Source: Escherichia coli (lineage in GTDB: Bacteria; Pseudomonadota; Gammaproteobacteria; Enterobacterales; Enterobacteriaceae). From it: a DNA stretch of 64,000 nt. The translations under genes were made by a program, and so were the position numbers. Location of the stretch: assembly GCF_016903815.1 (NCBI RefSeq), contig NZ_CP069973.1; one strand, 5' to 3'. Below, piece after piece: positions 17,208 to 52,686 of the stretch (within the stretch, counting starts at the first letter, position 1; each line of letters starts with the position of its first letter). Below the pieces are notes generated by a model. That model was not told the DNA's origin and did no database searches. It saw only the letters and a list, made by a program, of their open reading frames with translations.

Positions 17208-17486
17208 TGGGGTGGAGGAGGTTCAGACCCTTTTTTTGATGATGATGGTAAGTTGTTGATAATTAGTGCTGCGGGAAGGTAAGGATAAAAAAGGGTGCTG
17301 CAGGAGAATGGGATGGTTTTGCTTTATTAACAACGGGCTAAACGTGTAGTATTTGAGTTCATTGCCGTACAGGCAGCTTAGAAAGCCAACCGAAAGAAAA
17401 ACTCGATTTTTATACCGTTCACTGCCGTACAGGCAGATAAAATGCGAAAAAAAACTCGTACTTTCGTACGAGCTCTTCTTTGAATA

Positions 17487-18022
17487 TGGCGGTGAGGGGG
17501 GATTGACTCGCTTCGCTCGCCCTGCGGGCAGCCCACTCACTGTGTTCGTGGTCTGTCCAACTGGCTGCGCCAGTTGTCGAACCCCGGTCGGGGCTTCTCA
17601 TCCCCCCTGGAGTGCAATATGCGAAAAAAAAGCTCGCACTTTCGTACGAACTCTTCTTTGAATATGGCGGTGAGGGGGGGATTGACTCGCTTCGCTCGCC
17701 CTGCGGGCAGCCCACTCACTGTGTTCGTGGTCTGTCCAACTGGCTGCGCCAGTTGTCGAACCCCGGTCGGGGCTTCTCATCCCCCTTGGAGTGCAATATG
17801 CGAAAAAAAAGCTCGCACTTTCGTACGAGCTCTTCTTTGAATATGGCGGTGAGGGGGGGATTGACTCGCTTCGCTCGCCCTGCGGGCAGCCCACTCACTG
17901 TGTTCGTGGTCTGTCCAACTGGCTGCGCCAGTTGTCGAACCCCGGTCGGGGCTTCTCATCCCCCTTGGAGTGCAATATGCGAAAAAAAAGCTCGCACTTT
18001 CGTACGAGCTCTTCTTTGAATA
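17487..18022. repeat. tandem array of three ~179-bp direct repeats (17487-17664, 17665-17843, 17844-18022), each ending in a copy of the tRNA-Ser 3' end and containing a terminator-like hairpin plus T-run; a partial degenerate copy lies upstream at ~17340-17486
   Basis: Direct inspection: the motif tggcggtgaggggg recurs at 17487, 17665, 17844 and at the genuine tRNA 3' end (18023); the sequence between copies is near-identical. Confidence 0.85.
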
Positions 18023-18110
18023 TGGCGGTGAGGGGGGGATTCGAACCCCCGATACGTTGCCGTATACACACTTTCCAGGCGTGCTCCTTCAGCCACTCGG
18101 ACACCTCACC
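18023..18110 (-). tRNA. serW: tRNA-Ser (GGA anticodon), serW-type
   Basis: Reverse complement reads GGTGAGGTGTCCGAGTGGCTGAAGGAGCACGCCTGGAAAGTGTGTATACGGCAACGTATCGGGGGTTCGAATCCCCCCCTCACCGCCA; long variable arm; 3' CCA encoded. Confidence 0.92.
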
Positions 18111-32937: not shown

Positions 32938-32957
32938 TACCCAATTTTTCTGAATCT

Positions 32958-32985
32958 AAAAAGCGCCTGCGGGCGCTTTTTTTGT
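32958..32985 (+). terminator. serS rho-independent terminator
   Basis: aaaaagcgcctgcgggcgctttttttg: GC hairpin followed by a T-run. Confidence 0.7.
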
Positions 32986-33175
32986 CTCCCTTTGATACCG
33001 AACAATAATTACTCCTCACTTACACGTAATACTACTTTCGAGTGAAAATCTACCTATCTCTTTGATTTTCAAATTATTCGATGTATACAAGCCTATATAG
33101 CGACCTGCTATAGAAATAATTACACAATACGGTTTGTTACTGGAATCAATCGTGAGCAAGCTTGAGTGAGCCATT

Positions 33176-45271: not shown

Positions 45272-45543
45272 GTATTCGTATTGAAATTGGCGAACGTTAT
45301 GTCGTTACCAGTGACAGCTTTCAGTTTATTCTCCACGAGAAAAAGAGAGCTGAAAGCGGTAAAAACGCCGGTCAGGAATGGCTGGCGGTGGTTGGTTATT
45401 ACCCGAAATTAAGCCAGCTTGTTTCCGGCCTGATGCATCACGATATTCTGACCGGAAGCGCAAAGTCTTTTGCTGATTTAAACGCGCAGGTTGAGCAACT
45501 CAGCAAGCGTTGTTCAGAGGCTTTTGGCTCATATGGCCGTTAA
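45268..45543 (+). CDS. P2 orf83-like hypothetical protein
   Basis: 91-aa ORF preceding A. Confidence 0.7.
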   Translation: MSIRIEIGERYVVTSDSFQFILHEKKRAESGKNAGQEWLAVVGYYPKLSQLVSGLMHHDILTGSAKSFADLNAQVEQLSKRCSEAFGSYGR

Positions 45544-47821
45544 AGCCTCCGGGCGTTTTGTCCCTCCGTCAGCATTTGCCGCAGGCACCGGTGAGACGTT
45601 TACCGGTGCTTATGCATGGAACGCGCCACGCGAGGCCGTCGGGCGCGAAAGACCCCTTACACGTGACGAGATGCGTCAGGTGCAAGGTGTTTTATCCACG
45701 ATTAATCGCCTGCCTTACTTTTTGCGCTCGCTGTTTACTTCACGCTATGACTACATCCGGCGCAATAAAAGCCCGGTGCACGGGTTTTATTTCCTCACAT
45801 CCACTTTTCAGCGCCGTTTATGGCCGCGTATTGAGCGCGTGAATCAGCGCCATGAAATGAACACCGACGCGTCGTTGCTGTTTCTGGCAGAGCGTGACCA
45901 TTATGCGCGTCTGCCGGGGATGAATGACAAGGAGCTGAAAAAGTTTGCTGCCCGTATCTCATCGCAGCTTTTCATGATGTATGAGGAACTCAGCGATGCC
46001 TGGGTGGATGCGCATGGCGAAAAAGAATCGCTGTTTACGGATGAGGCGCAGGCTCACCTCTATGGTCATGTTGCTGGCGCTGCACGTGCTTTCAATATTT
46101 CCCCGCTCTACTGGAAAAAATACCGTAAAGGACAGATGACCACGAGGCAGGCATTTTCTGCTATTGCCCGCCTGTTTAACGATGAGTGGTGGATTAGCCA
46201 GCTTAAAGGCCAGCGTATGCGCTGGCATGAGGCGTTACTGATTGCTGTCGGGGAGGTCAATAAAGACCGTTCTCCTTATGCCAGTAAACATGCCATTCGT
46301 GATGTGCGTGCGCGCCGCCAGGCAAATCTGGAATTTCTTAAATCGTGTGACCTTGAAAACAGGGAAACCGGCGAGCGCATCGACCTTATCAGTAAGGTGA
46401 TGGGCAGTATTTCTAATCCTGAAATTCGCCGGATGGAGCTGATGAACACCATTGCCGGTATTGAGCGTTACGCCGCCGCAGAGGGTGATGTGGGGATGTT
46501 TATCACGCTGACCGCGCCGTCAAAGTATCACCCGACTCGTCAGGTCAGAAAAGGCGAAAGTAAAACCGTTCAGCTTAATCACGGCTGGAACGATGAGGCA
46601 TTTAATCCAAAGGATGCGCAGCGTTATCTCTGCCGCATCTGGAGCCTGATGCGCACGGCATTCAAGGATAATGATTTACAGGTCTACGGTTTGCGTGTCG
46701 TCGAGCCACACCACGACGGAACGCCGCACTGGCATATGATGCTTTTTTGTAATCCACGCCAGCGTAACCAGATTATCGAAATCATGCGTCGCTATGCGCT
46801 CAAAGAGGATGGTGACGAAAGAGGAGCCGCGCGAAACCGTTTTCAGGCAAAGCACCTTAACCGGGGCGGTGCTGCGGGATATATCGCGAAATACATTTCA
46901 AAAAATATCGACGGCTATGCACTGGATGGTCAGCTCGATAACGATACCGGTAAGCCGCTTAAAGATACTGCCGCGGCTGTTACCGCATGGGCGTCAACGT
47001 GGCGCATCCCGCAATTTAAAACGGTTGGACTGCCGACAATGGGGGCTTACCGTGAACTACGCAAATTGCCTCGCGGCGTCAGTATTGCTGATGAGTTTGA
47101 CGAACGCGTCGAGGCTGCTCGCGCTGCCGCAGACAGTGGTGATTTTGCGTTGTATATCAGCGCGCAGGGTGGGGCAAATGTCCCGCGCGATTGTCAGACT
47201 GTCAGGGTTGCCCGTAGCCCGTCGGATGACGTTAACGAGTACGAGGAAGAAGTCGAGAGAGTGGTCGGCATTTACGCGCCGCATCTCGGCGCGCGTCATA
47301 TTCATATCACCAGAACGACGGACTGGCGCATTGTGCCGAAAGTTCCGGTCGTTGAGCCTTTGACTTTAAAAAGCGGCATCGCCGCGCCTCGGAGTCCTGT
47401 CAATAACTGTGGAAAACTCACCGATGGTGATACTTCGTTACCGGCTCCCACACCTTCTGAGCACGCCGCAGCAGTGCTTAATCTGGTTGATGACGGTGTT
47501 ATCGAATGGAGTGACCCGGAGGTCGTGAGGGCGCTCAGAGGTGCATTAAAACACGGTCGGAGAACGCCAAATCGTCAGCAAAGAAACGGAAGCCCGTTAA
47601 AACCACATGAAATTGCACCATCGGCCAGACTGGCCCGGTCGGAAAGAATGCAAATTACCCGTATCCGCGTTGACCTTGCTCAGAACGGTATCAAGCCGCA
47701 GCGATGGGAGCTTGAGGCGCTGGCGCGTGGCGCGACCGTAAATTATGACGGGAAAAAATTCACGTATCCGGTCGCTGATGAGTGGTTCGGATTTCAAGAT
47801 GAAGTGTCATTTTTTATATAA
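45533..47821 (+). CDS. A: P2 replication initiation protein A (rolling-circle nickase)
   Basis: ~762 aa from MAVKASGRFVPPSAFAAG; HUH-type region (EPHHDGTPHWHMMLF) and catalytic tyrosine region (AGYIAKYISKN). Confidence 0.92.
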   Translation: MAVKASGRFVPPSAFAAGTGETFTGAYAWNAPREAVGRERPLTRDEMRQVQGVLSTINRLPYFLRSLFTSRYDYIRRNKSPVHGFYFLTSTFQRRLWPRIERVNQRHEMNTDASLLFLAERDHYARLPGMNDKELKKFAARISSQLFMMYEELSDAWVDAHGEKESLFTDEAQAHLYGHVAGAARAFNISPLYWKKYRKGQMTTRQAFSAIARLFNDEWWISQLKGQRMRWHEALLIAVGEVNKDRSPYASKHAIRDVRARRQANLEFLKSCDLENRETGERIDLISKVMGSISNPEIRRMELMNTIAGIERYAAAEGDVGMFITLTAPSKYHPTRQVRKGESKTVQLNHGWNDEAFNPKDAQRYLCRIWSLMRTAFKDNDLQVYGLRVVEPHHDGTPHWHMMLFCNPRQRNQIIEIMRRYALKEDGDERGAARNRFQAKHLNRGGAAGYIAKYISKNIDGYALDGQLDNDTGKPLKDTAAAVTAWASTWRIPQFKTVGLPTMGAYRELRKLPRGVSIADEFDERVEAARAAADSGDFALYISAQGGANVPRDCQTVRVARSPSDDVNEYEEEVERVVGIYAPHLGARHIHITRTTDWRIVPKVPVVEPLTLKSGIAAPRSPVNNCGKLTDGDTSLPAPTPSEHAAAVLNLVDDGVIEWSDPEVVRALRGALKHGRRTPNRQQRNGSPLKPHEIAPSARLARSERMQITRIRVDLAQNGIKPQRWELEALARGATVNYDGKKFTYPVADEWFGFQDEVSFFI

Positions 47822-48039
47822 AAAACGTTAAAATTCAATGCAATGAAGGCATGGAGGAGGTCGCTTTAATATGTTTTATGTTTAATATTTATTAATTGTT
47901 TATTTAATATAAAAAAATATTATATATAGGGAGATCAAATACAACGGTTTACTTGTTATGATGCAAACATTGGTTAGTTAGTGAGATACATCGCCATCAA
48001 TTGGGTAACTTTACCCGTGGAAAGTTAACGCTTTCTAAC

Positions 48040-48225
48040 ATTTACCCCGCGCAACGCCCCTGCCAGCGACAAGAGTCACAGGATCAGGCGGTATGGCGTA
48101 TGGGTATTCGAACCCTTTGGGCGACCAAGGGTTCGTGGAGCAGGGGGCTAGTGCTGTTCAATCTCATCCTTATGAGGGCGAACCATAGTGTTGGAGCAGG
48201 CATATCGTTTGCACACTATGGGCAT
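48040..48225 (+). ncRNA. candidate structured ncRNA (possible retron msr/msd or other regulatory RNA)
   Basis: GC-rich island in AT-rich cargo with several stems: cgcccctgc/gcagggg (48054-48147), cgaaccctt/aagggttcg (48107-48134), ccatagtg/cactatgg (48183-48221); immediately upstream of the HTH-RT genes. Confidence 0.3.
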
Positions 48226-48237
48226 AAGGAGCAAATC

Positions 48238-48393
48238 ATGAAGAATGATAAATTAACCAACGAACAGCAGGCGCAGAACAAGTCAAACCTGAAAAAGTGG
48301 GCTGGTTATGTTTGGAAATTAATCAAATGGGGTATTAGACTGTTTGATTTAGCCACTCGAGCACTGGACTACTTTGAAGGGGGTGATGAGTAA
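48238..48393 (+). CDS. small 51-aa protein, amphipathic (hypothetical)
   Basis: ATG with AAGGAG RBS 6-7 nt upstream; MKNDKLTNEQQAQNKSNLKKWAGYVWKLIKWGIRLFDLATRALDYFEGGDE; may instead be untranslated RNA. Confidence 0.35.
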   Translation: MKNDKLTNEQQAQNKSNLKKWAGYVWKLIKWGIRLFDLATRALDYFEGGDE

Positions 48394-48429
48394 TGCGTCC
48401 TCCCTAGTTTCAATAGCATGGAGTTGCCT

Positions 48430-48750
48430 ATGTTACACAGAGCCCTTCGTTTAATAAGGCAATACCATAAAGAGTCATTGGTTGATTTATCAACATCTTT
48501 AGGTATTCCAAAAGAAAAAATAGTAGAACTCGAAAGTGGGGTTTGGTCGCCTACAATTGATGTTTTACAGCGTTACGCCTCCCATTTCGATATGCCGGTA
48601 TCTTCTTTAGTATTTTTTTCAGAATCGTTAGGTACGCAGGGGCGTTTATCTAAGCGTTTCCGTTTAAATTTAGCTGGTAAAGTATTAGATGTTATTGAGT
48701 GGGCGAATAAGAAAAATGAAAAGACGAATAAAACTCAAAATTTCCACTAA
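48430..48750 (+). CDS. XRE/Cro-type helix-turn-helix protein, putative partner of the RT
   Basis: 106 aa from MLHRALRLIRQYHKESLVDLSTSLGIPKEKIVELESGVWSPTIDVLQRYASHFDMPVSSLVFF (HTH_XRE-like pattern); GGAG RBS; 3' end overlaps the RT start. Confidence 0.6.
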   Translation: MLHRALRLIRQYHKESLVDLSTSLGIPKEKIVELESGVWSPTIDVLQRYASHFDMPVSSLVFFSESLGTQGRLSKRFRLNLAGKVLDVIEWANKKNEKTNKTQNFH

Positions 48751-49666
48751 AAATAAATCTTACGATATAATTGATTCGCCGTTTTATAAAATGAGAAGTA
48801 AAAGGAAATTGGCTTCTTTATTGGGGGTTGATGTAGGGGATTTATCAACCTTAAAAAAAGATGAAGGCAATTATTCTATTTTTGAACAGTTATCTAAAAA
48901 CGGAAAGCCACGTAAGATACAAAAACCATTAGAAAAATTAGATGTGGTGCATACTCGTATTGCAAGTCTGCTATCGCGAATTACTTTGCCAGATTATCTA
49001 CATTCTGGAAAGAAGGGATGTTCTAATGTTACTAATGCTAAAATCCACCTTAATAATGAAAGGTTGATGACAACCGACATCAGGGCTTTTTTTCCATCAA
49101 CTACCAGAGAAATGATATTTTCATTCTTTTTTTCTGTTATGAAGATGTCATCTGATGTTGCGGATGTATTATCGTATATATGTACTTGCTATGGGCGTTT
49201 GCCTACAGGTAGCAGGATTAGTATGCCTCTTGCATATTTTGCAAATTCCAGAATGTTCGGAGAAATACACCAACTTTGTAATAAACTACACGTAAATATG
49301 TCTGTTTATGTTGATGATCTAACTTTTTCAGGACAAAACGTTAATAGACTATTTTGTTCAGTGATTCGCAAAATAATAAATAAGCATGGTCATGTGATGC
49401 ATGCGGATAAAACAAAAATTTATAGTAGAGAAAAGCCTAAGTTGGTAACAGGTGTTATTGTTTTGGGCGGTTCTTTAAAAGTCAGGAATAAGCAGCATCT
49501 TTTAATGTCTCAAGAAATTGAATATTGGAAAATGATAAAGGATGCAGCGTGTGCAAGAGAAACTCATACTGCCAAAAAGTTATTTGGACGATTGCATTCT
49601 ATGGGGGTAATTGAACAACGTTATAGATCAAAGGTGCTTACATTAAAAGCAAGTACTGCACTTTAA
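48716..49666 (+). CDS. retron-type reverse transcriptase
   Basis: RT motifs visible: DIRAFFPS (motif A), YVDDLTFSG (motif C), retron-typical NAxxH (NAKIH) and VTG (KLVTGVIVLGG); ~316 aa; start codon uncertain (48689, 48716 or 48791). Confidence 0.8.
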   Translation: MKRRIKLKISTKNKSYDIIDSPFYKMRSKRKLASLLGVDVGDLSTLKKDEGNYSIFEQLSKNGKPRKIQKPLEKLDVVHTRIASLLSRITLPDYLHSGKKGCSNVTNAKIHLNNERLMTTDIRAFFPSTTREMIFSFFFSVMKMSSDVADVLSYICTCYGRLPTGSRISMPLAYFANSRMFGEIHQLCNKLHVNMSVYVDDLTFSGQNVNRLFCSVIRKIINKHGHVMHADKTKIYSREKPKLVTGVIVLGGSLKVRNKQHLLMSQEIEYWKMIKDAACARETHTAKKLFGRLHSMGVIEQRYRSKVLTLKASTAL

Positions 49667-49774
49667 TACAGGTTTCTGTAAGTGATTATATTGTTCTTAA
49701 GATACTTACTGATGTTATTTCCCCGTAGCCTTAATTTCTGCGGGGAAGTATGGAGATATTTTGGTTATGGAATG

Positions 49775-51139
49775 CTAATTTTTTAATGTGTATTTTTCTG
49801 TGATTAGTTTCATTGTTCTTTCCAATCCTAAATATACAGTGGCATCAGTAATATTGAGCACGGCAAGTTCTTTTAAAATTTTCTTTTTGTCTCTGATGTT
49901 TATTTTTTCTGTCTTAAAATTGTATGGTGAATTATCTGCCTGATCGTTGGATATCTCAGGAAAAACGGCGTTATTACCGAATAATAAAAAGGCACCGGAT
50001 TGAGATGATATTCTTTCATTATTTATTCTGCTTTTTACAAAAATTATTTTTTCCAAATCCTCTGGATTTATTATGCTTTTAAAATATGGTTTTTCATGCT
50101 TTATGGATTCTAAGAGTTTAAGGCAAGCATGAGAGCTGTTAAAATCATTATTTCTTTCTTCGAAAGAAAGCTTGTCTTTCATGTCTTTTGATAGCATGCA
50201 TAAATTAGATATGCAACTGACAGTGTCGGAATCGAAAAATTTAATGTTCTCTCTGTGTGTTTTAAATATTATTACTTGACCATCGATATCGTTTTTGTCG
50301 GAATTTATACTACTGCATGCAAAATAAAGTGCAATTAATGGATTTGATGTGATGTCAAGTAAGCGAGTAGGTATGCCATAATGTTGCATTCTTACAAGTT
50401 TATCAAGCATTGATGTATCATCAATGAATTCTGAGGGTCTTGCGCTCAATGCTTCTTTAACAAGGTTGATTTCATTATGTAGAAATTTATAGTTCCCATT
50501 TTCATATTTTCTGAAAAGAGATGGTGCAAGTTCATAAGATGAATCTGAATGACCCCTGTAAAAAATCTCCTCATCCATATCTGCTGTTATATGGAGAACT
50601 TTTTCAATAAATTCTTGTAAACTATTTACGGTTAATAATGTGCTATCTTCGTCTGGGAGAGGCGCTGGACTGCTATCCACTTGTGCATTTTGGTTAATAC
50701 CAAATGTCTTAAGGATATCATCTATATTTTTGTCTTTTATGGCCCAGTGTGTTCTTTTAAGGCCATAAGTTCCGAGTTCTAAACTGCTTTCAACACTTTT
50801 GGCGTCTGATATTTTGATTTCATTGTGTGTATGGGTGATTGCAAATTGGAAGTTGATTTCTTTTCCCTTAATGTGAATATTTGAAATTCTTCCAATTCGT
50901 ATGTCGACATAATAAGGTTTTGCTCCCTCTATTTGATAAGCTTCACTCATGAATATTGTTGGGAGTTTTTCAAGATAAGATAGTACATTACTGCTTAATG
51001 GGGATAGTTTTTTACGAATACCATCGGAGGTGTTTTCAAACATTCGTGATAAAAGAAATGAGAATTCTCCATTATTTTGGCTGAATGGTTTCCAGTGGTC
51101 GTAGTGGTCGGGAAAACCACCCATAATTAAATTAATCAT
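49775..51139 (-). CDS. FRG-domain-like protein (C-terminal FRG-type motifs, uncharacterised N-terminal domain); candidate defense gene
   Basis: 454-aa AT-rich ORF convergent with the RT; motifs FYRGHSDSSYELAPSLFR and RMQHYGIPTRLLDITSNPLIALYFA. Confidence 0.6.
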   Translation of the reverse strand: MINLIMGGFPDHYDHWKPFSQNNGEFSFLLSRMFENTSDGIRKKLSPLSSNVLSYLEKLPTIFMSEAYQIEGAKPYYVDIRIGRISNIHIKGKEINFQFAITHTHNEIKISDAKSVESSLELGTYGLKRTHWAIKDKNIDDILKTFGINQNAQVDSSPAPLPDEDSTLLTVNSLQEFIEKVLHITADMDEEIFYRGHSDSSYELAPSLFRKYENGNYKFLHNEINLVKEALSARPSEFIDDTSMLDKLVRMQHYGIPTRLLDITSNPLIALYFACSSINSDKNDIDGQVIIFKTHRENIKFFDSDTVSCISNLCMLSKDMKDKLSFEERNNDFNSSHACLKLLESIKHEKPYFKSIINPEDLEKIIFVKSRINNERISSQSGAFLLFGNNAVFPEISNDQADNSPYNFKTEKINIRDKKKILKELAVLNITDATVYLGLERTMKLITEKYTLKN

Positions 51140-51463
51140 AATTACCTGTTCATCTGACGTAGGTGTAGGAATGCTTGTTGTTTGTTATGGTAATGTTAAC
51201 GCTTGTTGGTGGCAACTACTATTACTACTTGCTGTTAGAGCTAAGACATTTTTTGATTGCTTGTAATGATAGCGAGCCTTTAACTAACTGGGATTTTGAA
51301 AAAATAAATGAATTGTCAATTTCCTGAGATTTTTATTACTGCATTCATTAAGTGCATTTTTTTGCGTGTGTTAGTTGCCATGCTTTTCCATGTTTGTTAT
51401 CAGTGTTGATGCGGTTACTGTGTTTTAATGCAATTGCATTAAAAGCGCCCTATGAAGCGGGCG

Positions 51464-51482
51464 GGCGAGGCGGGGAAAGCAC
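51464..51482. other. P2-type cos site (19-nt cohesive end sequence)
   Basis: ggcgaggcggggaaagcac, matching the P2 cohesive end as I recall it; lies between the cargo island and the Q portal gene. Confidence 0.6.
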
Positions 51483-51651
51483 TGCGCGCTGGCGGTGGTG
51501 CTGATTTTATTTTTTCAGCGTCTCAGCGCGTCGTGACGGCGCTTAGTCTGCCCGTTGAGGCGTTGGTGTGTCTGCGGGGGGTTTTGTGCGGTGGTGAGCG
51601 TGTGAGGGCGTGATGGCGGGTTGTAAAAAAGCCGCCCGCAGGCGGCGATGT

Positions 51652-52686
51652 TCAGCCGTTGTCAGTGTCCAGTGAGTAGTTTTTAAAGCGGATGACCTCC
51701 TGACCGAGCCAGCCGTTTATTTCCCGAATCCTGTCCTGTAACGGGATAAGCTCATTGCGGACAAAGACCTTTGCCACTTTCTCAATATCACCCAACGACC
51801 CGACGTTCTCCGGCTTGCCGCCCATCAACTGAAAAGGGATGCGGTGCGCGTCCAGCAGGTCAGCGGCGCTGGCTTTTTTGATATTAAAAAAATCGTCCTT
51901 CGTTGCTACTTCACTGAGCGGGATAATTTTAATGCCGTCAGCTTTCCCCTGCGGGGCATAGAGAAACAGGTTTTTAAAGTTGTTGCGGCCTTTCGACTTC
52001 ACCATGTTTTCGCGAAGCATTTCGATATCGTTGCGATCCTGCACGGCATCAGTGACGTACATGATGTATCCGGCATGAGCGCCGTTTTCGTAATACTTGC
52101 GGCGGAACAGCGTGGCCGACTCATTCAGCCAGGCAGAGTTAAGGGCGCTGAGATATTCCGGCAGGCCGTACAGCTCCTGATTAATATCCGGCTCCAGCAG
52201 GTGAAACACGGAACCGGGCGCGAAGGCTGTCGGCTCGTTGAAGGACGGCACCCACCAGTAAACATCCTCCTCCACGCCACGGCGGGTATATTTTGCCGGT
52301 GAGATTTCCAGTCTGATGACCTTACCGGTGGTGCTGTAACGCTTTTCCAGAAATGCATTACCGAACACCAGAAAATCCAGCACAAAGCGGCTGAAATCCT
52401 GCTGGGAAAGCCACGGATGCGGGATAAATGTCGAGGCCAGAATATTACGTTTGACGTAAATCGGTGAGCTGTGATGCACGGCAGCACGCAGGCTTTTTGC
52501 CAGACCGGTAAAGCTGACCGGTGGCTCATACCATCTGCCGTTACTGATGCACTCAACGTAATCCAGAATGTCACGGCGGTCGAGTACCGGCACCGGCTCA
52601 CCAAAGGTGAATGCCTCCATTTTCGGGGCGCTGGCGGTCATTGTTTTTGCCGCAGGTTGCGGTGTTTTCCCTTTTTTCTTGCTCAT
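51652..52686 (-). CDS. Q: P2 portal protein gpQ
   Basis: 344-aa ORF MSKKKGKTPQPAAKTMTASAPKMEAFTFGEPVPVLDRRDILDY; adjacent to cos and P. Confidence 0.9.
   Translation of the reverse strand: MSKKKGKTPQPAAKTMTASAPKMEAFTFGEPVPVLDRRDILDYVECISNGRWYEPPVSFTGLAKSLRAAVHHSSPIYVKRNILASTFIPHPWLSQQDFSRFVLDFLVFGNAFLEKRYSTTGKVIRLEISPAKYTRRGVEEDVYWWVPSFNEPTAFAPGSVFHLLEPDINQELYGLPEYLSALNSAWLNESATLFRRKYYENGAHAGYIMYVTDAVQDRNDIEMLRENMVKSKGRNNFKNLFLYAPQGKADGIKIIPLSEVATKDDFFNIKKASAADLLDAHRIPFQLMGGKPENVGSLGDIEKVAKVFVRNELIPLQDRIREINGWLGQEVIRFKNYSLDTDNG

Follow-up and report, generated by a model that had tools for sequence, protein, structure and literature searches.

The question raised by this locus, which lies in a P2-like prophage within 64,000 nt of an Escherichia coli contig (NZ_CP069973.1; the whole stretch is called the window below), is what kind of system its helix-turn-helix (HTH) and reverse transcriptase (RT) genes belong to, and how that system would act. 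The initial annotation had put the two genes in the tin/old cargo slot of P2 between gene A and cos, which we could confirm: the cassette lies between gene A for the replication endonuclease (45491-47821) and the portal gene Q (51652-52686, minus strand), and the P2 cos sequence is at 51463-51481. This gpA-gpQ hotspot of P2-like phages holds defence cargo, retrons included (Rousset et al. 2022). The likely answer is a complete Type VI retron of the Retron-Vpa2 ('Large') lineage, carried as prophage cargo, with a Vpa2-type mechanism by extrapolation. Judged from homology and layout, it is an ordinary example of a known anti-phage family, the Type VI retrons.

The two proteins are encoded as follows:

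48430-48750, plus strand: HTH protein of Cro/C1 (XRE) type, 106 aa; start according to homologues and RefSeq
48716-49666, plus strand: RT, 316 aa, Type VI 'Large' lineage according to profiles and to the labels of relatives in the published tree

The open reading frames are slightly longer (48418-48750 and 48689-49666), but homologues, and for the HTH protein also RefSeq, begin at the ATG codons at 48430 and 48716. As the HTH stop codon ends at 48750, the genes overlap by 35 nt, in agreement with the sizes and the overlap of about 35 nt given initially. The same arrangement, with the HTH gene upstream of the RT gene and overlapping it, was seen in all homologous loci retrieved (overlap of 17-35 nt) and is consistent with translational coupling, short of proving it.

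Profile searches bore out the suggestion of a retron-type RT, possibly of Type VI, with matches too strong to be due to chance. PADLOC RT_VI matched with E=1.1e-105 over 278 of 279 profile positions, about 200 bits above the next family (RT_III-A, 3.9e-45), and the matches listed (25 of 38) were all retron RT models. HTH_VI matched the smaller protein with E=7.2e-30 over 91 of 92 positions. The comparison with other RT classes that the initial annotation had proposed also ended with retron RTs on top: they were the best NCBIfam matches (E=4e-32 to 1e-25, against merely 2.3e-3 for Drt3a) and accounted for 11 of 11 matches in a PDB sequence search. Pfam found RVT_1 in the RT (E=1.7e-7) and, weakly, HTH_3 in the HTH protein (E=0.015), which also matches phrog_8, a transcriptional regulator.

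An NAxxH motif upstream of motif A and a VTG triplet after the YxDD box are signatures of retron RTs. All four motifs quoted in the initial annotation are present, namely NAKIH (N107, A108, H111), DIRAFFPS (D121), YVDDLTFSG (Y198-D201) and KLVTGVIV (T245, G246). In an alignment with 23 relatives, the motif residues are invariant or nearly so: N107, A108, H111, T245 and G246 never change, and the V of VTG hardly does. The YVDD box had been called atypical, but it is found in all 23 relatives, including the V. parahaemolyticus RT, and is thus normal for the clade. Two of the relatives, WP_000746343.1 (81% identical) and WP_001461245.1 (about 60%), are labelled 'Large' Type VI in the tree of Garcia-Rodriguez et al. 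(bioRxiv 10.64898/2026.04.27.721009). Identity to these labelled relatives would place the window RT in the same lineage, which is that of Vpa2; identity to the Vpa2-type RT P0076 is 54%.

The idea of an HTH plus RT defence module stood insofar as the genes are a Type VI retron pair, but the two genes are incomplete as a system, and a small protein (SP) gene and a structured non-coding RNA had been missed. The range 48430-49666 covers only the two proteins, and the full system begins about 470 nt further upstream. It consists of one operon with four parts (about 47954-49666): a hybrid RNA (hyRNA), the SP gene embedded in it, the HTH gene and the RT gene. This ncRNA-SP-HTH-RT order is the standard Type VI layout, so that an msr/msd not directly abutting the RT is not atypical, as had been thought. 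An RT of clade 3, an HTH of family cl2_1 and an upstream SP, which define Type VI according to Mestre et al. 2020, are all present. Family membership and gene order are established by this analysis.

The search for an msr/msd upstream, also proposed initially, led to a conserved structured RNA with a long-range, a1/a2-like helix. Its elements are:

47954-47962, plus strand: putative extended -10 promoter element TGTTATGAT, from conservation
47969-48420, plus strand: hyRNA, msr-msd-like non-coding part plus SP coding sequence, about 450 nt, with inferred boundaries
48002-48007/48012-48017, plus strand: hairpin H1 of the 5' arm (within 48002-48036), both-side changes in 4 of 6 pairs
48019-48023/48032-48036, plus strand: hairpin H2 of the same arm, both-side changes in 2 of 5 pairs
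48043-48106, plus strand: long variable stem-loop, candidate msd by homology
48109-48135, plus strand: conserved 9-bp hairpin with repeat 1, GGGCGAC (48119-48125), in its loop, from covariation
48136-48147, plus strand: 5' strand of the long-range, a1/a2-like helix that closes the SP-containing domain, pairing with 48400-48412
48152-48159, plus strand: 5' strand of helix H4, UGCUGUUC, pairing with GAACAGCA at 48262-48269 (SP codons 9-11, Glu-Gln-Gln)
48167-48174, plus strand: anti-Shine-Dalgarno (anti-SD) strand, pairing with 48223-48230 and so overlapping the SP ribosome binding site (RBS) AAGGAG (48226-48231)
48176-48182, plus strand: repeat 2, GGGCGAA, in the riboregulator internal loop, direct repeat of the loop motif at 48119-48125
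48184-48220, plus strand: inner hairpin of the riboregulator arm, helices 6-8, 14 pairs, 13 of them with both-side changes
48238-48393, plus strand: SP, 51 aa, predicted toxic effector, from the ORF, homology and RefSeq WP_001754918.1
48270-48274, plus strand: 5' strand of helix H5, GGCGC in SP codons, pairing with GCGUC at 48395-48399 just past the SP stop
48400-48412, plus strand: 3' strand of the long-range helix, in the near-invariant CCUCCCUAGUUUCA tail between SP and HTH

The MFE fold of 47969-48420 is far more stable than those of shuffled sequences (z=-5.3) and reproduces the helices found by comparison, and nhmmer recovered the region upstream of HTH-RT pairs in other genera. In an RNAalifold consensus of 24 homologues, 45 pairs were predicted with 93% of cells paired, as opposed to 45-53% in slid controls, although this agreement is somewhat inflated because pairs were counted on the alignment that had yielded the structure. 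Compensatory changes were found in 32 pairs, and none of 500 shuffles was as good. Rfam with permissive thresholds returned nothing for 47000-52000; since no Rfam family covers the Type VI hyRNA, the empty scan says nothing against an RNA. The RNA fold is thus an observed feature of the locus, as are the anti-SD helix and the co-varying GGGCGA repeats described below.

At the 5' end, a scan for consensus promoters and terminators upstream of the RNA gave no convincing site, and the extended -10 element surfaced only through conservation. Its TGnTAnnAT motif is kept in alignments of enterobacterial alleles, and it may be the promoter, although the call is weak. The transcription start that it predicts, near 47969, is where the 470-nt Vpa2 hyRNA would place the 5' end. 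H1 and H2 are 93-97% paired. A long stem folds at the msd position in 24 of 24 homologues, with variable sequence and length (about 55-110 nt), and is always accompanied by the conserved hairpin, whose stem covaries across genera (for example GAACCCUUU/AAGGGUUC, GCAACUUUGGGG/CCCAAAGUUGC and GCGCAUUCGGGG/CCCGAAUGCGC). In Retron-Vpa2 of V. parahaemolyticus (Zhang et al., bioRxiv 10.1101/2025.10.22.683967), the 63-nt cDNA corresponds to the long msr-msd stem-loop, and the full-length msDNA is extended at its 5' end by 23 nt that form an essential stem-loop. By analogy, 48043-48106 is a candidate msd, the template for the main part of the msDNA, and the hairpin at 48109-48135 would encode the 5' stem-loop in the full-length product.

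Further downstream, the core of the long-range helix, GGGGG/CUCCC (48143-48147/48400-48404), is 97% paired, with covariation from A-U to G-C. Its extension (48136-48142/48405-48412) is seen in the MFE fold, and GUCGA accompanies UUUCGA in four sequences, while fixed-column support is moderate. H4 is 99.5% paired, with both-side changes in 5 of 8 pairs, and was also recovered as an inverted repeat; H5 is 96% paired, with both-side changes in all five pairs. Fixed-column counts of the helix extension and of the anti-SD helix were blurred by MAFFT register shifts, and duplex energies were therefore used in a permutation test. Over 13 lineages, anti-SD/SD duplexes averaged -10.9 kcal/mol for cognate and -7.8 for non-cognate combinations, and 0 of 20000 permutations were at least as good as the cognate set. 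The anti-SD helix is also part of the MFE fold. Conserved 7-nt direct repeats, one in the msd loop and one in the riboregulator loop, have been described for Type VI hyRNAs. Of 24 homologues, 23 have both copies, and the two vary in step, reading GGACGAA in both copies of Vpa2, GGCGAG in both of A. fischeri and GGCGACAC in both of Acinetobacter.

Two further pairings were considered and set aside. A classical a1/a2 pairing of 47969-47990 with 48405-48420 comprises only 4-6 bp and is not conserved in other lineages. A pseudoknot of UCGCC (47991-47995) with the GGCGA loop (48120-48124) suits Vpa2 (UCGUC/GACGA) but not Marinomonas and was left unproven.

The SP is annotated in RefSeq as hypothetical (WP_001754918.1) and matches phrog_15287. 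Its ORF ends 36 nt before the HTH start, and nearly all related loci have an SP ORF of 45-65 aa, 33-52 nt before the HTH start. dN/dS is below one in most pairs, tblastn connects the SP to Vibrio SPs, and an AlphaFold2 model shows a single long helix (residues 4-48, pLDDT 75). Toxicity has been demonstrated only for the SPs of Vpa2 (Zhang et al.) and Sen3 (Garcia-Rodriguez et al.), and by analogy the window SP is predicted to be a toxic effector, a helical toxin. Two longer frames, a 130-aa ORF (48001-48393) and a 73-aa in-frame extension of the SP, were rejected as genes because their upstream parts consist of conserved RNA helices and are missing in homologues outside E. coli. The 130-aa ORF is annotated across the ncRNA in the phage record NC_049386, and the RefSeq labels in use are 'reverse transcriptase family protein', 'helix-turn-helix domain-containing protein' and 'hypothetical protein'. 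Public annotations overlook the system as a whole.

The closest characterized system is Retron-Vpa2, which has the same hyRNA-HTH-RT order and an HTH gene overlapping the RT gene. The RTs (319 aa in Vpa2, 316 aa here) are 54% and the HTH proteins 50% identical, and the conserved HTH N-terminus MLHRALRLIRQYH includes the shared R7. The sequences used for Vpa2 are those of locus L087, whose accession WP_069548583.1 is not among the few accessions shown in the published cluster listing; we equated the two because the L087 SP has 55 aa and K15, I39, F43 and F45, exactly the residues that were mutated in Vpa2. Compared with the text description of the Vpa2 hyRNA, the layout of msr-msd, riboregulator, SP-coding arms and a 3' end that anneals back is present in the window, with a variable msd stem, conserved hairpin, direct repeats, sequestered SP RBS and a three-way junction of helices H3, H4 and H5, which we equate with the 'central node'. 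The window system differs in its SP (51 aa, of common architecture but only about 18% identical in the alignment), in its repeats (GGGCGA(C/A) versus GGACGAA), and in its host E. coli and its P2-like carrier. Retron-Eco12, described as phylogenetically related to Vpa2, is of the same species and type as the window retron; its sequence or accession is not given in either preprint or supplement.

msDNA has been demonstrated only for Vpa2 (Zhang et al.) and Sen3 (Garcia-Rodriguez et al.), and its production by the window allele is predicted. Anti-phage defence has been demonstrated for Vpa2 and Eco12 (Zhang et al.) and Sen3 (Garcia-Rodriguez et al.), and is predicted for the window allele. The two characterized Type VI retrons differ in mechanism, and the Vpa2-type mechanism is therefore extrapolated from the RT identity of 54% and the RNA features. 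At rest, as in Vpa2, the HTH protein would keep reverse transcription low and the SP would not be translated. A superinfecting phage with recombination or anti-RecBCD functions (lambda Red-type) would cause msDNA, copied from about 48043-48135, to accumulate. Its 5' stem-loop, bearing the complement of repeat 1, would anneal to repeat 2 in the riboregulator and free the RBS. The SP would then be made and stop cell growth before the phage cycle is completed (abortive infection), to the benefit of the lysogen and its P2-like prophage.

A Retron-Sen3-like mode of action is unlikely. Sen3 (Salmonella enterica, cl2075; Garcia-Rodriguez et al.), in contrast to Vpa2-type systems, makes ssDNA and SP constitutively and is controlled post-translationally through the HTH protein. 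Transferred to the window, the HTH protein would be a protein antitoxin, and inhibition of RecBCD by a phage would free the toxin without new cDNA. The SP-HTH-RT order and the cl2_1 HTH are shared with Sen3, as are a structured ncRNA, long-range pairing around the SP coding sequence and RNA structural selection on that sequence. In Sen3, HTH and SP work as a toxin-antitoxin module even when RT and ncRNA are absent, and RecBCD inhibition is the trigger (Garcia-Rodriguez et al.); the Vpa2 HTH(R7D) mutant is toxic as well (Zhang et al.), and P2 old, the usual occupant of the slot, also responds to RecBCD status. However, the RT and SP of Sen3 are of another lineage, in which the SP, 79 aa long, is extended N-terminally by about 25 residues, whereas the window SP has 51 aa without extension, and the published label of the RT relatives is 'Large' rather than 2075. 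Translational control is favoured by the anti-SD helix and the co-varying repeats, and Eco12 from E. coli, which defends against lambda-vir, had no detectable basal msDNA (Zhang et al.). By analogy with both systems, the HTH protein is predicted to be a repressor of reverse transcription, an SP antitoxin, or both.

Two further, unlikely readings concern the RNA and the slot. The 3' end of the predicted template, at 48135, borders the long-range duplex directly 5' of the strand 48136-48147, while the partner strand lies past the SP stop. This geometry suggests a permuted retron RNA. If the priming G were just 3' of the partner strand (48413-48421), cDNA synthesis would need the closed SP-mRNA loop, and the msDNA would remain joined to the toxin mRNA at the latter's 3' end; reverse transcription would then be physically coupled in cis to toxin translation. 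As to the slot, old and tin of P2 are phage-borne exclusion genes in the same position beside cos, and Old shares with Type VI retrons a response to lambda functions that disable RecBCD. The P2-borne allele may be a functional substitute of old that senses lambda Red/Gam-type functions. P2 Old is an ATPase-TOPRIM nuclease that works without reverse transcription or RNA, and proteins and mechanisms are unrelated.

The distribution of the cassette bears on whether it could be a decayed or silent remnant with genes intact by chance. Among 5426 complete E. coli genomes, 99 carry it, and 59 complete E. coli genomes have it at 99.6-100% identity. The same cassette (99.7% identity) is found in the isolated phage P2_2H1, at the right-hand end of the Peduovirus P22H1 genome. 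No fewer than five diverged alleles exist in E. coli (100, 84, 83, 79 and about 60% identity). An FRG-domain neighbour was rejected as a retron partner because other alleles of the retron have different neighbours. A weak promoter prediction would fit a remnant, but the three intact ORFs, the near-identity of the cassette in many genomes and a phage, alleles at 78-84% identity in which all ORFs, the overlap and the RNA helices are preserved, the helices with compensatory changes, and the dN/dS of the SP, mostly below one, make this very improbable.

Finally, a non-retron RT (Abi-P2, AbiA/AbiK, DRT/UG, group II intron or DGR) beside an unrelated HTH regulator can be dismissed almost entirely: an Abi-P2 type RT is known from the same P2 variable locus (Odegrip et al. 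2006, as cited by Rousset et al. 2022), Rfam finds no known retron RNA and the RVT_1 match is modest, but profile and PDB matches are to retron RTs as detailed above, the NAxxH and VTG signatures are conserved, a covarying msr-msd-like RNA is kept upstream, and the locus has no intron RNA domain, maturase or endonuclease domain, or DGR template/variable repeat pair.

Earlier work has already covered this family with its architecture, RNA and two mechanisms, and standard defence-finder profiles recognize the locus, which accordingly has little discovery value. It has some practical value as a native, phage-borne E. coli allele, in its natural P2 lysogen, of a retron type whose two studied members, Vpa2 and Sen3, behave differently. 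For the family, the co-varying GGGCGA repeats and the covariation of the anti-SD helix independently support the proposed msDNA-riboregulator model.

The HTH and reverse transcriptase (RT) reading frames of the initial annotation are present in the window as first described, but its two-gene view overlooked an additional open reading frame for a small protein (SP) and a structured RNA upstream.

48238-48393, + strand: SP gene, 51-aa ORF, AAGGAG at 48226-48231, ending 36 nt before the HTH start
48430-48750, + strand: HTH gene, 106 aa, open from 48418, ATG at 48430 (start according to homologues and RefSeq)
48716-49666, + strand: RT gene, 316 aa, open from 48689, start at 48716 (according to homologues and RefSeq)

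The last base of the HTH stop codon is 48750, giving a 35-nt overlap with the RT gene. Comparison with PADLOC profiles confirmed the Type VI assignment of the pair, with full profile coverage for both HTH (HTH_VI, E=7.2e-30) and RT (RT_VI, E=1.1e-105; next family III-A, 3.9e-45). The proposal of a retron-type RT is likewise supported by profile searches and PDB sequence matches. PADLOC matches to the RT were retron RTs without exception among the 25 of 38 listed, as were 11 of 11 PDB matches (best Ec86, 2.4e-12). The top NCBIfam ranks went to retron St85, TIR and Ec67 RTs (4e-32 to 1e-25, below family cut-offs), and Drt3a reached 2e-3. Pfam identified RVT_1 in the RT (1.7e-7) and, weakly, HTH_3 in the HTH protein (0.015). 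Neither the profile searches nor the PDB search placed the RT with group II intron, DGR or non-defence RTs. N107, A108 and H111 (NAKIH), D121 (motif A), Y198-V199-D200-D201 (YVDD) and T245-G246 (VTG) are invariant in 23 aligned RTs, so that the YVDD box, originally regarded as atypical, is normal for Type VI. Zhang et al. give the Vpa2 box as YADD; YVDD stands in the V. parahaemolyticus RT (P0076) as well as in all of the other 22 relatives.

Type VI retrons are ncRNA-SP-HTH-RT operons (Zhang et al., 10.1101/2025.10.22.683967; Garcia-Rodriguez et al., 10.64898/2026.04.27.721009), and the separation of msr/msd from the RT, also first considered unusual, is their normal layout. In related loci, collected by RT homology, a small ORF of 45-65 aa ends 33-52 nt before the HTH start in nearly all cases. 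RefSeq annotates the window SP as a hypothetical protein; its AlphaFold2 model is a single long helix (pLDDT 75). For most allele pairs, SP dN/dS is below 1. Relative to the window SP, one allele (L003 2920-3075) has about 7 non-synonymous changes and 0 synonymous ones, which are small numbers; all more distant pairs have dN/dS <1. A 130-aa TTG-start 'hypothetical protein' of phage record NC_049386 (L096 4180-4572; window 48001-48393, + strand), spanning ncRNA and SP, is most likely a mis-annotation, because its upstream two thirds consist of conserved RNA helices.

The region around 47950-48237 is non-coding, yet better conserved than the SP gene among five E. coli alleles. We aligned 24 homologous regions with MAFFT, by sequence only (Escherichia, Acerihabitans, Yersinia, Serratia, Dickeya, Vibrio, Aliivibrio, Aeromonas, Xenorhabdus, Providencia, Shewanella, Marinomonas, Acinetobacter and Cricetibacter), and obtained an RNAalifold consensus of 45 pairs.

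47954-47962, + strand: extended -10 motif TGTTATGAT, kept in enterobacterial alleles
48002-48007/48012-48017, + strand: consensus helix H1
48019-48023/48032-48036, + strand: consensus helix H2
48043-48106, + strand: long stem, differing in sequence and length among the 24 homologues (individual folds)
48109-48135, + strand: conserved hairpin, covarying stem, loop GGGCGAC
48119-48125, + strand: direct repeat 1, GGGCGAC, in the loop of the conserved hairpin
48143-48147/48400-48404, + strand: long-range helix, GGGGG with CUCCC directly after the SP stop
48152-48159/48262-48269, + strand: H4, UGCUGUUC with GAACAGCA, SP codons Glu9-Gln10-Gln11
48167-48174/48223-48230, + strand: anti-SD helix directly 5' of repeat 2, covering the Shine-Dalgarno sequence
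48176-48182, + strand: direct repeat 2, GGGCGAA
48184-48220, + strand: riboregulator inner hairpin, consensus helices
48270-48274/48395-48399, + strand: consensus helix H5

In the alignment from which the structure was itself derived, 93% of cells at consensus pairs are paired, versus 45-53% with partners slid by 1-3 columns. Both sides have changed in 32 of the 45 pairs, and the covariation score is 0.51 versus 0.08-0.18 in the slid controls; none of 500 shuffles reached any pairing or covariation measure. A three-way junction results from H4, H5 and the long-range helix: one arm carries the start codon and ribosome site, another the remaining SP coding sequence, and the 3' end anneals back beside the msr-msd arm. 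Folded alone, 47969-48420 has an MFE z-score of -5.3 and reproduces all consensus helices, with the long-range helix lengthened to 48136-48147/48400-48412 (GUCGA with UUUCGA together in four sequences; fixed-column support moderate). A transcript start near 47969, predicted from the extended -10, would fit the 470-nt Vpa2 hybrid RNA (hyRNA); a consensus promoter scan listed nothing at 47954-47962.

Between H2 and the junction, all 24 sequences fold individually into the long variable stem and the conserved hairpin. In Vpa2, the long stem-loop corresponds to a 63-nt cDNA, and the 23 extra 5' nt of the full 86-nt msDNA form a stem-loop essential for SP translation (Zhang et al., 10.1101/2025.10.22.683967). 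Homology with Vpa2 predicts the window template at about 48043-48135. Type VI hyRNAs carry conserved 7-nt direct repeats in the msd and riboregulator loops, and cDNA of repeat 1 was proposed to anneal to repeat 2, freeing the SP ribosome site (10.1101/2025.10.22.683967). Both repeats co-vary across lineages (both copies read GGACGAA in Vpa2, GGCGAG in A. fischeri and GGCGACAC in Acinetobacter). Cognate anti-SD/SD duplexes across 13 lineages score -10.9 versus -7.8 kcal/mol for non-cognate ones, with 0 of 20000 permutations as good.

We treat the V. parahaemolyticus locus L087 as Retron-Vpa2 itself or an allele sharing that SP, because the L087 SP agrees in quoted length (55 aa; 10.64898/2026.04.27.721009) and in the residues mutated in Vpa2 (K15, I39, F43, F45; 10.1101/2025.10.22.683967). 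The L087 RT is 54% and the L087 HTH 50% identical to the window proteins, the HTH N-terminus being nearly identical, R7 included. Both SPs start with a polar N-terminus containing QQ, followed by a linker rich in lysine, a hydrophobic helix rich in Trp and an acidic tail rich in Gly. The window junction and arms agree with the published description of the Vpa2 hyRNA (10.1101/2025.10.22.683967).

The analysis establishes the window locus as a family member and shows its gene order, RNA fold, co-varying repeats and sequestered ribosome site; by analogy, it would act as Vpa2 does. At rest, HTH would hold back reverse transcription and SP would stay untranslated; phage recombination or anti-RecBCD functions would cause msDNA to accumulate, opening the riboregulator so that SP is made and growth stops. 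The main rival is the mode of Salmonella Retron-Sen3, in which ssDNA and SP are constitutive, HTH is a protein antitoxin and RecBCD inhibition is the trigger (Garcia-Rodriguez et al., 10.64898/2026.04.27.721009). We rate it lower because Sen3 belongs to a separate lineage with a 79-aa SP, the window shares the translational-control elements of Vpa2, and E. coli Retron-Eco12 showed no detectable basal msDNA (10.1101/2025.10.22.683967). In the published Type VI tree, WP_000746343.1 (RT of the 84% allele, 81% identical to the window RT) and WP_001461245.1 (RT of the distant allele) are both 'Large', the lineage of Vpa2 (10.64898/2026.04.27.721009).

In this E. coli window, the cassette sits in the interval from the gpA (replication endonuclease) gene to the gpQ (portal) gene, in agreement with the P2 old/tin slot initially assigned. 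The interval is a hotspot (Rousset et al. 2022): P2 itself carries old and tin here, and other P2-like phages carry defence cargo, retrons among it. The P2 cos sequence GGCGAGGCGGGGAAAGCAC is at 51463-51481, between the FRG and portal Q genes, and the Peduovirus P22H1 record, with the cassette at its right end (99.7% identity), ends at window 51458. The cassette is 100% identical in E. coli strain 7/2, in a P2-like prophage beside pflA, and occurs in 99 of 5426 complete E. coli genomes (alleles of >=99%, ~84% and ~79% identity); a more distant E. coli allele is located outside P2. The exact RT and SP sequences are each on at least about 1000 contigs. Yersinia (L088) and Serratia (L094) alleles occupy P2-like gpA-portal slots, so the association of retron and phage hotspot spans genera. 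A Dickeya allele (L089 3727-5951) adjoins QatB/QueC-like/TatD-like genes, a Qat-type defence neighbourhood.

The same hotspot encodes a 454-aa FRG-domain protein (49775-51139, - strand; Pfam FRG 5e-21; PADLOC candidate defence family PDC-S15 9e-98; phrog_4962, unknown function), which looks like independent cargo because other retron alleles have different neighbours. Where the RT and FRG genes converge, a GC-rich hairpin lies in the gap (49721-49745, CCCCG...CGGGG, 15-nt loop); neither strand shows a U-run there, and the hairpin was unlisted by the terminator scan. From the gpA stop codon to the conserved RNA, 47822-47950 is an AT-rich, poorly conserved spacer that varies among E. coli alleles and may be a recombination junction of the cassette. 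Elsewhere in the window, Rfam gathering-level matches were tRNA-Ser(GGA) (18023-18110, -), RtT (17487-17621, -), sRNA STnc130 (32951-33085, -) and a single CRISPR-DR4-like 28-mer (17357-17384, +), probably a chance or REP-like match.

The finding is real and correctly classified; its family has been described before, the window member of it is ordinary, and the Type VI retron at this locus is recognised by standard tools.
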